Sequence record: PQ362703.1
Source of the DNA: Escherichia phage vB_EcoP_PW8
DNA: 64,000 bases
Direction: 5' to 3' (one strand)
The position numbers and the translations under genes were made by a program. This document shows positions 9,242-63,498 of this stretch, piece by piece. Under the pieces are notes generated by a model that did no database searches, had not been told where the DNA came from, and saw only the letters and a program-made list of their open reading frames with translations. Each line of letters starts with the position of its first letter. The stretch's first letter is position 1.

Positions 9242-9256
9242 AGACGCTCCGCGTCT
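9242..9256 (+). promoter_or_regulatory. candidate virion-RNAP hairpin promoter (AGACGC-TCC-GCGTCT)
   Basis: Perfect 6-bp stem with TCC loop, 12 nt upstream of the ATG at 9268. Confidence 0.45.
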
Positions 9257-55507: not shown

Positions 55508-55554
55508 ACTTATATCGTATATAGGAAGCTTACTCTACAGTAAGCCAGTGTAAG

Positions 55555-55577
55555 AAAAAAGCCCCGAAGGGCTTTTG
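55555..55577 (-). terminator. minus-strand intrinsic terminator between the upstream virion gene and vRNAP
   Basis: On the minus strand: AAAAGCCC-ttcg-GGGCTTTTTT. Confidence 0.55.
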
Positions 55578-58017: not shown

Positions 58018-60672
58018 TTAAACTAGGTCGGTATTAAGGGTCATGTCAGAGTAGTTACCTATCATGTCTAGAGACAAGTCAGCTATATCTGAACCAGTCA
58101 TGAGAGTACGTGATAAGAATGAATCCAGTGACTCCATTGACACGAATTGCATAGGGTCAATTACACCCTGCCCAGCAGTACCAAACATTTCTTCATACTG
58201 CTTATTGATTGCCATCATATCAGTGTTGTACTGCTGCATTACTTTCTCTGCTTTCTGAATAGTAGCAGCCGTAGATGCATTAATATACTGACTAATACCA
58301 TTACCTACTGAACTGGTAAGCTGCATGATGTTTTGTGCATTCATCATCTCACCTGCTAGGGTGGATAGGGATGTACCAGTAGACAAAGCAGTACCAACAT
58401 TCATAGCTACCATTGAAGCAATAGCTGCAATAATAAAGCCTAATTTATCACCGAACAGTGCAGTGGATACTTTTGTAATAATGGATACCAGAATCATTCC
58501 AGCAATAGCGTTTGCTACAGCACCAACTATCACGGCAGCTAATCCAACAAAGCCAAGTGATGCACCAACTGCACCATATGCTCCAAGTATGCCTGCACCA
58601 CCAGCACCCATAGTGAATACGGATACAACGACAGCAACTACAACAACCACAATCTTAAAAGCAGATGTTTGATACCACTTCTTCTTAACCTTCTTATATG
58701 AGTTCATCACTAAGTAGGAGCAAGCAGTGGATAGCTGAGTACTTCGAACCAGTGACATTGAACGGTAGATGTTAGTATGTAGTGGAATAATGAATCCGCT
58801 CTCCTCTGCATCACCCATTGCTTCGGCGACATCAATGTGCACTGACTTATTCTTATATACCCTGTTGTTGTGGTTTAGGCCCAGTATTCTAAGTTTACGG
58901 TAGGTATTATTACCATCCTGCCAAAGTAACTCATACTCCTGCATTGAATAGAATGTGTACGTTACCTCAAGTTTCTTAGAAGAGCCGGAGTTACGGGAGG
59001 TACGCATATTCTTACGAGTAAGGGTTATATCCCCTGCATACCTGGATCGAAGCTGCCCCTGTTTAGCACCAGACCATGCTTGCCCTGAGTGGGTAGTTTC
59101 AAATACATAGTTCCAGCCAATAGTCATGTCATACTTGTAATGCTTATTACTATGTACCCTAAATTCTCGCTTAGGTATAACAGGATATTCAGGTAGTGGT
59201 GGCGGTGTTCCAATAGTATGCCCTCCAGTCATATTCCACCATTTTACATATGCATCAACTGCATCATTAGCTGCCTGATAACCTGCAATTACTGCTTCCA
59301 AAGTTGGGTAGGTTGGGTCAGGTGGAAATGCTTCTGTAGCCATCTGAAAGAAACGGTAGATGTATTCCTTAGCAGTATCCTCTGGAGAATTAAGAGATAC
59401 ACCGAATGTGCCATAAATGTATTGGATATCACCTATGTCCTTATTCTTCTTAAGCTCAGTTATTACATTATTGAGTTTGCCACCAGTAGCTTTATAAAGA
59501 GCCTTTTTACAGTGAGGGTAGATTGGGTCATTCTCTACCCATTGCTTATCATTCCTGATTGGAATGAATGGGTAGAATCGATTATCAGTAGCTTCAGTCT
59601 CAAACAGTGAATCCAGTGCAACGTTACCAGAGTTCTGCTTATAGATAAGCATCTTAGGTGTACCAACAGCAGTCATCTCTGTATCAGTACGAGTAGTCTG
59701 GGATGAATACTTACGAACCAGTGTCTCTGTGGTTGTAGTGATTGTATCGGTACGAGTAACTCCACCACCTAAATCAACTACATTAGTAGTTACAGAAGTA
59801 CTAGACTGAACCTCACCAAACTTTTTATGAGTCATTACCCGGTCAGATACAACTACAGTCACATCATTAGGTTTCTCAGTAAACCCTCTGCGGTAAACCT
59901 TAACGTAAGAGTTCCAGTTATCTACACTTGGTTCAGTGACTGTACTATCCTCATCCGGTCTGTCATCAGAGTAAACAGAATGAGTATGTATAGTCTTAGT
60001 AAGGTTAGTTGTATTAGCTGTTGTATCACTTGATACAGTATTCCATAGCAAAGTAGAAGGTAAGTCACTCTCGCTATCATAAACAGTAGTCGGTCCTACT
60101 ACCGGTGGATTGATAGTAGGAGATTTATAGAAAGAGTAGTCAACATAGAGATACAAAGCACCTGGTTCAAAGTTAGTTGGTGTGAATTTAATAGTAGAAC
60201 CTCCATCCAAGGAGGTCATAGTAATTTCATTGGTATCTTCATCAATGTCTATGTCGAATCGTTCCATGATTCGACTCGGAGCATTCTCATAAAGATACTG
60301 GTCACACCATTGCTCAAAATCAGCAAAGCCAATCTCTGCTGCCTGAACATAAACAGATTCTCCAGCAGGGGGCGTAATTTGACCCTCTATAACAGTAGGG
60401 TCAATCTTAGCCAATACACCCAATGAAGAACCAGCCATACCTATTTTTGAATCATAGTGGTTCTTACTCCAGCTGGAGAACAATCGCATACGAATACCAG
60501 GTCCATTCAGATAACTATCAGAGATAGTGTCTGCCATAGTGAATCCTGTATTGGAAACAATGTTACCAATGACTACAGTCTTCATATAGTTAGGACGTTT
60601 GTGTATGTCCCCTGCCATATTGTAGACAGAGGATGCTACGTATACTTTGGTCTTACTACTGAATAAGCCCAT
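58018..60672 (-). CDS. large virion protein with C-terminal hydrophobic Gly-rich segment
   Basis: 884 aa. About 100 residues of Gly/Ala/Val-rich hydrophobic sequence near the C-terminus. Confidence 0.45.
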   Translation of the reverse strand: MGLFSSKTKVYVASSVYNMAGDIHKRPNYMKTVVIGNIVSNTGFTMADTISDSYLNGPGIRMRLFSSWSKNHYDSKIGMAGSSLGVLAKIDPTVIEGQITPPAGESVYVQAAEIGFADFEQWCDQYLYENAPSRIMERFDIDIDEDTNEITMTSLDGGSTIKFTPTNFEPGALYLYVDYSFYKSPTINPPVVGPTTVYDSESDLPSTLLWNTVSSDTTANTTNLTKTIHTHSVYSDDRPDEDSTVTEPSVDNWNSYVKVYRRGFTEKPNDVTVVVSDRVMTHKKFGEVQSSTSVTTNVVDLGGGVTRTDTITTTTETLVRKYSSQTTRTDTEMTAVGTPKMLIYKQNSGNVALDSLFETEATDNRFYPFIPIRNDKQWVENDPIYPHCKKALYKATGGKLNNVITELKKNKDIGDIQYIYGTFGVSLNSPEDTAKEYIYRFFQMATEAFPPDPTYPTLEAVIAGYQAANDAVDAYVKWWNMTGGHTIGTPPPLPEYPVIPKREFRVHSNKHYKYDMTIGWNYVFETTHSGQAWSGAKQGQLRSRYAGDITLTRKNMRTSRNSGSSKKLEVTYTFYSMQEYELLWQDGNNTYRKLRILGLNHNNRVYKNKSVHIDVAEAMGDAEESGFIIPLHTNIYRSMSLVRSTQLSTACSYLVMNSYKKVKKKWYQTSAFKIVVVVVAVVVSVFTMGAGGAGILGAYGAVGASLGFVGLAAVIVGAVANAIAGMILVSIITKVSTALFGDKLGFIIAAIASMVAMNVGTALSTGTSLSTLAGEMMNAQNIMQLTSSVGNGISQYINASTAATIQKAEKVMQQYNTDMMAINKQYEEMFGTAGQGVIDPMQFVSMESLDSFLSRTLMTGSDIADLSLDMIGNYSDMTLNTDLV

Positions 60673-60673
60673 A

Positions 60674-61516
60674 TTAGTTCAGCCCGTTGTTAGACTTCAG
60701 CTTGGTTAAAATGGTATCAATACTTGCGTTAGTGAAACCATTTGGTGGGTTCAAGCCTTCATCAATAGTCTTCTGTGTAATCCATGCATCAGTAAACAGC
60801 TTAGATGCTTTAACCTCTGCATCACGTTGGTAAGAAGTAATCTGTTGAGAGTACAGTTCTTTCTGTTTACCTACAGAACCAGTAACAGTAGCACCATCAC
60901 TACGGGTATCTAGTGTCTGTGCACGTTGTGCTTCGGTCTGCTCAGTAATCAGCTTAAGCTGTTGAGGTAACATCTGATTAGCATTAAACAATGCAGCACA
61001 GTACGTCTCAGACTCAGTAGCAATCTTCATCTTAGTAAGAGCGTATTCACTCTTAGCAGACAGTGCCTGAATCTTAGCTAGTACAAACTGAGCTTTAGAA
61101 GTAGCCAATGTAACACGTGCAGTAACTGCCTGAATCTGTGCCAGTGCAGCAGCCCAGTATGCCTGGTCACGACCAAGTAAGAACTGAACAGCATTACTCA
61201 TGCATGATTCCATCATAGCAATGTATGCTTTGGTATATTCACCACCTGTAATACGGTTAGCTTTAAACTCAGCTTTAAGGTGATTATGTGCAGATTCCAT
61301 TAATGCATCAAACGTACCACTACCACCTACTTCACGAGTAGTAAGAGATTCATTGGTTATTTTAGTAATGGCACCAAAGATTGGAGAACCATCCCCACCA
61401 GGGATATCCCATTCGGGGCCAGACATATCAATATCAGGAAGGGCAAAGTCATCACCCTTAGTTAACTCTTCAAGGAGTCGGTTAGCTTCTACCTCAGCAG
61501 AACAAGACATAATCAT
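60674..61516 (-). CDS. virion protein with predicted coiled-coil
   Basis: 280 aa, Ala/Gln/Lys-rich heptad-like region. Confidence 0.4.
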
Positions 61517-61586
61517 TCCTCTTGGTTCAAAAAGAAACGGCCCACGGAGTTACCCCAGTGAGCCGTGTTGAACTGTAGCTTATACG

Positions 61587-62228
61587 TTAATCGTTAAGGC
61601 TACCAGCAGCAATCTGTGCTTGAGCCAGTTGAGCTAATTCAGCTTCAGTCAACGGAGGCAGTACTTCGATGGAGAACTCTCGTGCTTCTGTTGCACGGAT
61701 ATCCGGTAAGCCATTCTTGCCTTTACGGGTAGTAATGTTAATGAACTTACGTTCTTTAAGGAACTCGTAGATACAGTACGGAATATGATAACCATTGTCG
61801 GTTACTTCACCGAATGGAACAAACTTACGTACAGTACCCATATATTCGTTAGCTACGGTGATAATCTCACCCGGCAGGTCTTTCTTCTTAGGATCAAGGT
61901 TCTGGATACGTACACGGATCAGTCGAGTCTGCTCTGCACGAATCTTTTGACCCAGGGTCATCTTCTTAACACCAGCTTCTTGCTTAGCACCCAGTGGATT
62001 AACAGCAGCTTCTTCTACTACTGGTTCATCTTTTACTTGTGCAGCTTCAATCTTTTCACGAAGCTTCTCAACGGAAATGTTGTTAGAGAACTTGATATTC
62101 ATCAACGTTGCACGTTGCTTAAGAACTTCAAGTTCACTAGGCATTGCAATATCGTTAACGGTATCTTCGTTGCCCTGTACGTTCTGTTCCACGCCAGTGG
62201 TCGGTTTATCGTTAATGCTCATGTTCAT
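61587..62228 (-). CDS. virion-associated protein, hypothetical
   Basis: 213-aa ORF immediately downstream of the major capsid gene. Confidence 0.4.
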   Translation of the reverse strand: MNMSINDKPTTGVEQNVQGNEDTVNDIAMPSELEVLKQRATLMNIKFSNNISVEKLREKIEAAQVKDEPVVEEAAVNPLGAKQEAGVKKMTLGQKIRAEQTRLIRVRIQNLDPKKKDLPGEIITVANEYMGTVRKFVPFGEVTDNGYHIPYCIYEFLKERKFINITTRKGKNGLPDIRATEAREFSIEVLPPLTEAELAQLAQAQIAAGSLND

Positions 62229-62295
62229 ATTTCCTATGGTTCATTTAGTTTTATTAAGAGGGGGACTAATGTCCCCCTTGTTTTATTTCGGACTA

Positions 62296-63498
62296 TTACA
62301 GAGGAGCAACAGTCTTAATCAGAGCCAGACGTTCTGGGCGTTTAACCAGAATACCATAGTACCACTTGATAGAACTGAAGCCAGTTTCACCATACGGGTC
62401 ATTACGGTCAGCAGTTTCTTTACCCGGCATCTTAGTCATGATGGTGAACTTAACAGACTTACCATCAGTCTGGAAGCCAATGGTAGAGAAGGAATCATCA
62501 CCAACTACCAGCATCGGGAATACGTCGTAGTGCTCCTGACCAGATACCATAGAAGTACGATAACCTGGGTTAGTAGTAACCTGTGCACCAGCACCTGCCC
62601 AGTGCAGCATCTCAGGAACCTGGATAATACGGAACTTATCAATACAACCGATTTCACCATTCATCAGAGTACCAGCATCTGCATAGTGCTGAACTTCAAT
62701 GAATGCTTTGTTACCGAACAGGTCTTTCATCGCTTTCAGTTCTGGAACCAGTTCAGAACCAACGTACATTACACGAGTACCACCAAGTACTTTGGTATCA
62801 GTAAGTTTAGAACCAGTAATGATAGTAGTCTGAGTCGGGGTACGGTTCTCAGTAAGAATCTGGTCAAGACGCATCAGGTTCTTATAAGAAACTACAGACG
62901 GGGTAGCACCTTCACCGGTGATGGTAGCATCAGAGACAGCAGCACCTGCATACAGTACAGTACCAGCAGCAGCCAGCAGGTCTTTCTGAAGAACAGCTTC
63001 AGTCAACTGTACAGCACCGTTCATCAGTTCACGAGACAGGTGTTCTTTCAGTTGATCATCAGAATCGAAGTCCAGAGACTCTTGGGTAAATTCATAGAAG
63101 AAACCGAACTTATGAATAGAACCTTCACGAGCCAGACGAGTAAAGCCTACACGGTTAACACGACCACCGTTCTCTGACAGCAGAGGCAGTTTAGAGGTGA
63201 TGTTACCAACGTCTTTAGAAGAACCATACAGGTTACCGTTAACGATGGTAGCACCATTAGCATCAATACCCTGGTCGTTAATGTTCTTGTCATCGAGCAG
63301 AGGAACGTACTCATACACCTTAACAGTCTTACCATAGTTCTTCGGCATGTTAACGGTGTTAGCCAGTGGCATAAAGTACTGGTCTTTACGGGACTGAATA
63401 ATAGCTTTCTTCAGCCAGTAATAGGTATTCATCTGGTCGGAACCAGCACCGTCAATGCTAGATTTCTGACCGTCAATTGGAGCGTTATAGTTTAACAT
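62296..63498 (-). CDS. major capsid protein
   Basis: 400 aa. Assignment by size and position in the late operon; a stable hairpin lies just downstream. Confidence 0.6.

Follow-up and report, generated by a model that had tools for sequence, protein, structure and literature searches.

What does a hairpin do when it stands directly behind the major capsid gene of an N4-like phage, ahead of the next late gene, and its best T-run lies on the strand opposite to that of these genes? This question is raised by the junction between the capsid gene and gp55 in Escherichia phage vB_EcoP_PW8, of which we analyzed 64,000 nucleotides (sequence record PQ362703.1; hereafter the window). The first-pass annotation took the misplaced T-run as a sign that the hairpin is an RNA-stabilizing or attenuating structure rather than a clean terminator. 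Structure, family conservation and transcript maps of a relative were used here to examine this view.

A GC-rich hairpin behind the capsid gene

The window phage is a G7C-like (Gamaleyavirus, Schitoviridae), N4-like coliphage, and the window shows 94-97% identity to ShWW44, EC1-UPM, St11Ph5, Bp4 and G7C. Its late genes lie on the minus strand in the order gp57, capsid (gp56), gp55, gp54, gp53 and onward to the gene of the 3458-aa virion RNA polymerase. The capsid ORF matched the PHROG profile "major head protein" (E=7.6e-151), and its homologs in related phages are annotated as major head or coat proteins; its stop codon TAA occupies 62296-62298 and is directly followed by TAG. The mechanical ORF call places the start of gp55 at the ATG at 62228, while the genes of relatives begin at the second ATG (MSINDKP...). 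The true start of gp55 is probably this second ATG, at 62222 on the minus strand, for which the Shine-Dalgarno spacing is also better (AGGA, 9 nt, ATG). Between the hairpin and the ATG at 62222 there is a gap of 36 nt. The features of the junction are collected in Table 1.

Table 1. Features at the capsid/gp55 junction of the window phage
Feature	Position	Strand	Description
Major capsid protein gene, N4 gp56 homolog, 400 aa	62296-63498	minus	hairpin at its 3' end
Plus-strand T-tract TTGTTTTATTTCG	62278-62290	plus	equals the A-rich flank GAAAUAAAACAA on the coding strand
Stem-loop	62259-62278	minus (coding)	AGGGGGAC-AUUA-GUCCCCCU, 8 Watson-Crick pairs
Coding-strand tail CUCUUAAUAAAACU	62245-62258	minus	weak, interrupted U-tract; 4 U in 8 nt past the GC core
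gp55-like gene (phrog_2130), N4 gp55 homolog	61587-62228	minus	
Canonical intrinsic terminator after gp55	61529-61566	minus	ACGGCUCAC..GUGGGCCGU then UUCUUUUU

On the plus strand, positions 62258-62279 read GAGGGGGAC-TAAT-GTCCCCCTT and are followed by GTTTTATTTCG up to 62290. Residues 62259-62266 pair with 62271-62278 around a 4-nt loop (62267-62270), and six of the eight pairs are GC; a ninth, terminal pair (G.T in DNA, G.U in RNA) forms on the plus strand only and stretches the stem to 62258-62279. On the coding strand, the hairpin begins 18 nt past the capsid stop, and the region reads UAAUAG-UCCGAAAUAAAACA-AGGGGGAC-AUUA-GUCCCCCU-CUUAAUAAAACUAAAUGAACCAUAGGAAAUAUGAACAUG. The predicted folding energy was -16.0 kcal/mol for the minus-strand RNA and -17.7 kcal/mol for the plus-strand RNA; the fold had a z value of about -3.8, and none of 200 shuffled sequences folded as well. 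The first-pass annotation had described a stable hairpin with an 8-9 bp stem just past the capsid stop, and these results bear it out, the ninth pair being confined to the plus strand.

The pattern GGGGGACNNNNGTCCCCC, searched with at most two mismatches, occurred once in the window against an expectation of 0.06. The window contained 15 perfect GC-rich hairpins, while its dinucleotide-shuffled versions contained 3.1 +/- 1.4; four hairpins had a stem of 8 bp or longer with 6 or more GC pairs, where 0.13 would be expected. All but one of the 15 fell outside ORFs of at least 100 aa, which make up 82% of the window. A covariance scan of 61.4-62.5 kb against Rfam, with E values up to 10, returned only noise and no match at the hairpin. 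An RNase III processing site was considered and rejected; the 8-bp stem is too short compared with the roughly 20 bp or more of double-stranded RNA required.

To compare the tails on the two strands, stems were trimmed to their GC-closed core and scored with a TransTermHP-style formula, whose scores serve as a relative measure only. The plus-strand tail of the hairpin, TTGTTTTATTT, scored 4.54 and contains 6 T in its first 8 residues; most of the plus-strand terminators that follow plus-strand genes of this phage scored 4.18-5.72, with 5-7 T in 8. The minus-strand tail, UCUUAAUA, scored 3.14 with 4 U in its first 8, whereas the bona fide terminators of the minus strand, which lie behind gp51, at 44622 and behind the polymerase gene, scored 4.06-5.47, with 6-7 in 8. 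In a consensus terminator scan, the hairpin was the top plus-strand site in 56-64 kb and was not called on the minus strand. The coding strand thus carries the stem-loop of a Rho-independent terminator (8 bp, a 4-nt loop, 18 nt past the stop), but its U-tract UCUUAAUA, at 4/8, falls below the canonical threshold of at least 5/8. The plus strand carries both the canonical stem and the U-tract, namely GAGGGGGAC-TAAT-GTCCCCCTT followed by GTTTTATTTC. Viewed as a bidirectional terminator, the hairpin has the A-rich flank AAAUAAAACAA and a weak U-run on the sense side. The T-run is therefore on the plus strand, as had been noted, and the coding-strand tail CUCUUAAUAAAACU holds no good T-run.

In the record of PhAPEC7, a G7C-like phage that was examined in detail, an ARNold terminator is annotated only after gp55 and none after the capsid gene. 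The terminator after gp55 was invariant across 15 G7C-like sequences. The interval 61517-61586, which covers this terminator and the ribosome-binding region of gp54, showed zero nucleotide diversity among 15 distinct G7C-like sequences, and in the same set the flanks and loop of the post-capsid hairpin were more variable than average.

Conservation of the hairpin among N4-like phages

We searched IMG/VR with the capsid protein and recovered 71 loci with 45-100% capsid identity, from which 58 non-identical downstream regions, including those of N4, LUZ7 and the window, were compared by the GC-closed core-stem definition. A GC-rich hairpin lay 4-30 nt past the capsid stop in all 58 of these regions. 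The stems themselves differ, and examples are GGGGGAC/GTCCCCC, GGGGGAG/CTCCCCC, GGGGAGG/CCTCCCC and GGGAAGGGG/CCCCTTCCC, with lengths of 15-23 bp in some lineages. Throughout the set, the G-rich arm was the 5' arm on the coding strand, and G.U pairs outnumbered A.C pairs by 34 to 13 when the post-capsid stems were read from that strand. The G-rich 5' arm and the excess of G.U over A.C indicate that the functional molecule is an RNA read from the coding strand. In addition, out of 56 loci of about 6 kb, each with about 20-45 perfect stems, 47 had the post-capsid hairpin among their top three stems and 24 had it in first place, while the chance of a top-three stem landing in a given 70-nt slot is about 3%. 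RNAalifold predicted the hairpin for 12 diverse intergenic regions with compensatory changes at 4 of 7 pairs, but MAFFT mis-registered several sequences in the alignment, so that we give this result little weight.

The tail is less uniform than the stem. A clean U-run follows the hairpin on the sense strand in LUZ7 and several other lineages, N4 and the other members of its subfamily have a modest sense tail with 4-5 U in 8, and the long-stem lineages have none. Among close G7C-like relatives, the sense tail varies through U to C changes, and the G7C-like tail is no worse than that of N4 and its other subfamily members.

Among the G7C-like phages of the capsid-anchored set, the stem was invariant; separate pattern searches of G7C-like relatives held the stem fixed by design. 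The 4-nt loop took seven forms among G7C-like relatives and varied freely, including flips. Two pairs of these forms are reverse complements within near-identical flanks, namely ATAA (6 sequences) with TTAT (4) and ATTA (the window and L081) with TAAT (L045); the further forms were TAGT, GTAA and ATGA. The loop variants at 62267-62270 were seen in L002, L045, L063, L075, L081, L082, L084 and others. From the sequences, this looks like repeated inversion of the loop by template switching in a perfect palindrome, and the sequence and orientation of the loop appear unconstrained.

Several distant lineages (L014, L020, L021, L026, L027, L037 and L069) possess post-capsid stems of 15-23 bp with G.U pairs and no U-tract, and such long stems resemble a substrate of RNase III or a pure stabilizer more than they do a terminator. 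In many lineages, the 5' arm contains a Shine-Dalgarno-like GGAGG and the 3' arm an anti-Shine-Dalgarno-like CCUCC, with GNRA loops (GAAA, GUAA or GCAA); hairpins of the GGAGG/CCUCC type were found in N4 (L013/L074), LUZ7 (L073), L011, L022, L040, L065 and L071. The identical stem GGGGAGG/CCUCCCC is present in N4, LUZ7 and L011 despite their different genera or subfamilies.

The LUZ7 junction and the proposed direction of termination

The transcripts of the Pseudomonas N4-like phage LUZ7 have been mapped by ONT-cappable-seq (Putzeys et al. 2022, PMC9163698; bioRxiv 10.1101/2022.03.18.484859, Tables S2-S4), and its terminators are further described by Lammens et al. (2023, PMC10204088). An end mapped by ONT-cappable-seq may stem from true termination or from an exonuclease that trimmed the RNA back to a hairpin, and the method does not tell the two apart. 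The terminator T56 of LUZ7 has its TTS at 59943(-), with orf79 as the upstream gene and a 3'UTR of 35 nt; it was predicted to be intrinsic and had an efficiency of 0.65 at 20 min. We found that orf79 is the capsid gene (59978-61171) and that the gp55-like gene, orf78, occupies 59280-59918, so that T56 lies between them; the mapped end is the last U of UUUUUU past GGGGAGG-gaaa-CCUCCCC. On the opposite strand, T57 (TTS 59974(+), efficiency 0.39 at 10 min and 0.44 at 20 min) lies 6 nt beyond the T56 hairpin and has no U-tract. Transcription units TU70, TU72 and TU76 finish at T56, while TU71 reads through to orf78, and the LUZ7 start map contains no minus-strand TSS between T56 and orf78. TU69 is a 214-nt antisense RNA that runs from a late start at 59760(+), inside orf78, to T57 at 59974. 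In LUZ7, therefore, 3' ends are found on both strands at this hairpin and the gp55-like gene relies on read-through. In both LUZ7 and LIT1, middle transcripts run antisense through the late cassettes (PMC9163698). One of the four bidirectional terminator regions of the LUZ7 study is not between convergent genes, and we infer that this is T56/T57, because both sit between the co-directional orf79 and orf78.

In placement and arm polarity, the hairpin of the window phage is the positional homolog of the N4-like post-capsid hairpin at the LUZ7 T56 locus. The two share the intergenic slot between the capsid and gp55-like genes, a GC-rich stem of 7-10 bp, a 4-nt loop, a G-rich 5' arm and a downstream gp55-like gene without a promoter of its own. 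They differ in the stem, which is GGGGAGG/CCUCCCC in LUZ7 and GGGGGAC/GUCCCCC in the window phage, and in the tails, since the clean UUUUUU of LUZ7 is on the coding strand, with no such run on the antisense side, whereas the window phage shows the reverse. In addition, LUZ7 belongs to another subfamily, infects another host and uses another type of middle promoter, and its 3' ends are mapped on both strands. In the set of papers that was searched, there were no transcript maps of N4 or G7C, and PMC10914365 contains nothing on capsid-gene terminators.

About half of our confidence goes to a reading in which the hairpin works on both strands, as a partial terminator and as a 3'-end hairpin; it would leak in the sense direction and act more strongly on antisense RNA. 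In the sense direction, the host RNA polymerase transcribing the late operon would meet the 8-bp GC stem 18 nt past the capsid stop, and only a fraction of the polymerases would release, because the U-tract is weak. Transcripts that end or are cleaved just downstream would be trimmed to the 3' hairpin, which would block 3'-5' exonucleases, and the outcome would be an excess of capsid-only mRNA. Read-through would supply gp55 and stop at the canonical terminator behind that gene. A gap of 36 nt is too short to hold a promoter for gp55, so read-through must occur, which matches LUZ7. In the antisense direction, the stem together with UUGUUUUAUUU would act as a canonical intrinsic terminator and halt plus-strand RNA before it enters the capsid gene; such RNA could come from read-through of middle transcription or, as in LUZ7, from a start within gp55. 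From the tails and the LUZ7 maps we infer both that the two activities exist in the window phage and how their strengths compare. Termination in the sense direction with UCUUAAUA may be very low.

The description of the hairpin as attenuating or stabilizing rather than a clean terminator thus stands in part. It fits the poor coding-strand U-tract (4/8, with no call in the minus-strand scan) and the required read-through, but the LUZ7 homolog T56 is a genuine intrinsic terminator with 65% efficiency, so that "terminator" is not wrong as long as it is understood as leaky. Likewise, the plus-strand T-run is indeed misplaced for sense termination, but treating it only as a reason to downgrade the terminator misses an antisense role, to which LUZ7 T57/TU69 and the tail score of 4.54 (a relative measure) point; the T-run is more likely the mark of a second terminator function, one that faces antisense transcripts.

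The first-pass view of an element that works in the sense direction only, as a leaky terminator and/or an exonuclease-blocking 3' stabilizer of the capsid mRNA that raises capsid output relative to the downstream genes, is plausible, and we would give it about one third of our confidence. The plus-strand T-run would then be an incidental AT-rich spacer, and the A-rich upstream flank could be a mere reflection of the AT-rich intergenic composition. The conservation in the family is tied to the coding strand through the G-rich 5' arm and the excess of G.U over A.C; most lineages, including N4 and LUZ7, carry the better tail on that strand; and the 65% efficiency of T56 agrees with sense termination. 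Three strong plus-strand terminators lie upstream in the 44-45 kb region, at 44071, 44622 and 45102, which speaks against an antisense role, and they should stop most middle transcription before the late region. A scan of 60.6-62.26 kb, which includes the gp55 antisense region, gave no sigma-70-like promoter on the plus strand at its threshold, and inspection by eye gave nothing convincing. A sliding-window analysis of diversity in 15 G7C-like sequences, aimed at a constrained antisense promoter but too low in power, gave zero in one 30-nt stretch (alignment coding-strand positions 511-540) and also in several others. However, the LUZ7 hairpin stops plus-strand RNAs even without a U-tract (T57, TU69), and in the lineage of the window the plus-strand tail equals those of functional terminators while the sense tail does not.

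It is a tentative and rather doubtful idea that the post-capsid terminator of the G7C-like phages has switched its effective polarity, so that its main job is now to end a cis-antisense RNA or to shield the capsid gene against antisense transcripts. In that case, a short cis-antisense RNA would cover the ribosome-binding site and the 5' part of gp55, as TU69 does in LUZ7. In its extreme form, in which the sense function has decayed and the hairpin mainly ends plus-strand cis-antisense RNA or antisense read-through, such an element seems improbable. The tail asymmetry favors the plus strand, on which the fold is also slightly more stable (-17.7 vs -16.0) owing to the extra G.U pair; the sense tail is not conserved among close relatives; and TU69 is a precedent for such an RNA. 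However, the position and arm polarity of the hairpin are kept with the coding strand across the family, which makes a purely antisense element less likely, and with 4-5 U in 8 the sense tails of other phages in the subfamily are just as modest, so that the G7C tail is unexceptional. Moreover, a stable 3' hairpin affects the decay of the sense mRNA whatever its U-tract.

We regard as very improbable the possibility that the hairpin has no function in RNA, being a chance palindrome or a DNA-level signal for replication, recombination or packaging. The loop inversions among relatives do show a palindrome that is active at the DNA level, through template switching. Yet the hairpin stands far above chance, the position behind the capsid stop is kept in every lineage despite complete turnover of the stem, the purine/pyrimidine polarity of the arms is strand-specific, and RNA 3' ends map at the LUZ7 homolog. 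A chance origin was rejected on the expectation of 0.06 occurrences, the top-three rank in 47 of 56 loci and the shuffle counts.

A DNA hairpin promoter, either an early promoter of the N4 virion RNA polymerase (vRNAP) or a GC-rich hairpin middle promoter of the LUZ7 type, can hardly be entertained and was rejected, because the loop is hypervariable and 4 nt long and no LUZ7 transcript starts there. N4-like phages do use extruded DNA hairpins as promoters, and the middle promoters of LUZ7 are GC-rich hairpins whose stem has 6 bp or more and whose loop has 3-4 nt (PMC9163698). The vRNAP promoters of N4, however, have a 3-nt loop with conserved -11 A/G, -10 G, -8 G and +1 C and are restricted to the left, first-injected genome end (PMC4496689), whereas the loop studied here is also inverted among relatives and the site lies far to the right, at 62.2 kb in a genome about 72 kb long, inside the late region. 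Middle promoters of the N4 type are AT-rich sequence motifs rather than hairpins, and no TSS is mapped at or near the homologous LUZ7 hairpin. The N4 early (P2-like) promoter motif GAAGCGGAGCTTC, searched in the window with at most two mismatches, gave one chance-level match at 9243 and none at the hairpin.

The two-way reading has parallels in known systems. Bidirectional intrinsic terminators are described by Ju et al. (2019), as cited in PMC9163698, and in the passages on LUZ7 T50 in PMC10204088; in these, as here, one hairpin serves both strands and the A-rich flank is the U-tract of the opposite strand. The classic examples separate convergent genes and are flanked by good tracts on either side, whereas the genes flanking the window hairpin are co-directional and only the antisense-facing tract is good. 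The likeness to the terminators behind the capsid genes of T7 and phiX174 is looser, and the closer working likeness is to LUZ7 T56/T57. T-phi follows the T7 capsid gene 10, and weak terminators follow the phiX174 J, F, G and H genes; in these phages, a partial terminator past the major capsid gene yields abundant, stable capsid mRNA while read-through feeds the downstream structural genes at a lower level. T-phi, with its proper U-run, acts on T7 RNA polymerase, neither T7 nor phiX174 is related in sequence to the window phage, and we know of no antisense role described for these terminators. REP elements such as that of malE-malF show that an intercistronic hairpin without a good U-tract can shield the upstream cistron from 3'-5' decay and skew operon expression. 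REPs are repeated, host-encoded and of consensus sequence, whereas the window hairpin is single-copy in the window and specific to the N4-like phage family.

Neighboring signals and biological meaning

Several other signals were observed in the genome. Strong tandem hairpin terminators are present at 44071-44092, 44622-44642 and 45102-45125, at the meeting point of the plus-strand middle genes and the convergent virion RNA polymerase gene. Those at 44622 and 45102 are probably bidirectional, like LUZ7 T50, a reading of the sequence made because their tails are good on both strands. After gp51, on the minus strand (55508-55576), a canonical terminator AAAAGCCC-cuuc-GGGGCUUUU followed by UUCUUAC is succeeded by a second hairpin and then by the AT-rich TATATACGATATAAGT right before the virion RNA polymerase gene; from its sequence, this region may be a terminator-promoter module for this 10-kb gene. 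A GC-rich hairpin of 9 bp, CGGAAGCUG-caacca-CAGCUUCCG, lies just past the right end of the window and was located in L002 (1268-1293). It falls within the first dozen codons of gp57, about 2430 nt upstream of the capsid stop, recurs at the equivalent position in many lineages including N4, and may act on the initiation of gp57 translation.

GAACCA and its complement TGGTTC are the two commonest hexamers of the window, with 90 and 83 copies; base composition predicts about 15, and a 4th-order Markov model 58/56. The copies are evenly distributed, occupy several reading frames in sense and antisense orientation, and often continue as GAACCAG; the excess may stem from a codon-pair effect. A role as promoter or translation signal was rejected, GAACCA being simply the commonest hexamer genome-wide. 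The longer form (C)TGAACCA(A/G)(G/A)G or its complement CTTGGTTC adjoins the post-capsid hairpin in 45 of the 58 non-identical N4-like loci. In the 90 nt past the capsid stop, counted over L002-L071, the density of GAACCA-type motifs was 11.3 per kb beside the hairpin vs 3.6 per kb elsewhere. The motif lies at the base of the 5' arm of the hairpin or just 5' of the gp55 ribosome-binding site, and in the window it is found on the minus strand at 62242 and 61528, preceding gp55 and gp54.

The post-capsid hairpin is an ordinary regulatory element that had not been annotated, rather than a new kind of element, and it leaves the current understanding of phage gene regulation unchanged. It fills a gap in annotation, as the PhAPEC7 record marks only the terminator after gp55. 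If anything is mildly surprising, it is that the tail asymmetry is reversed in the G7C-like phages, a small hint that antisense transcription is managed at the capsid/gp55 junction; should the switch of polarity be true, antisense RNA would be a conserved regulatory layer at this junction in N4-like phages. For use in E. coli, the fragment could possibly provide a compact terminator part that faces antisense transcription or acts both ways. If the two-way reading is true, it would explain how an N4-like phage makes far more capsid mRNA than mRNA of the next genes without a separate promoter.
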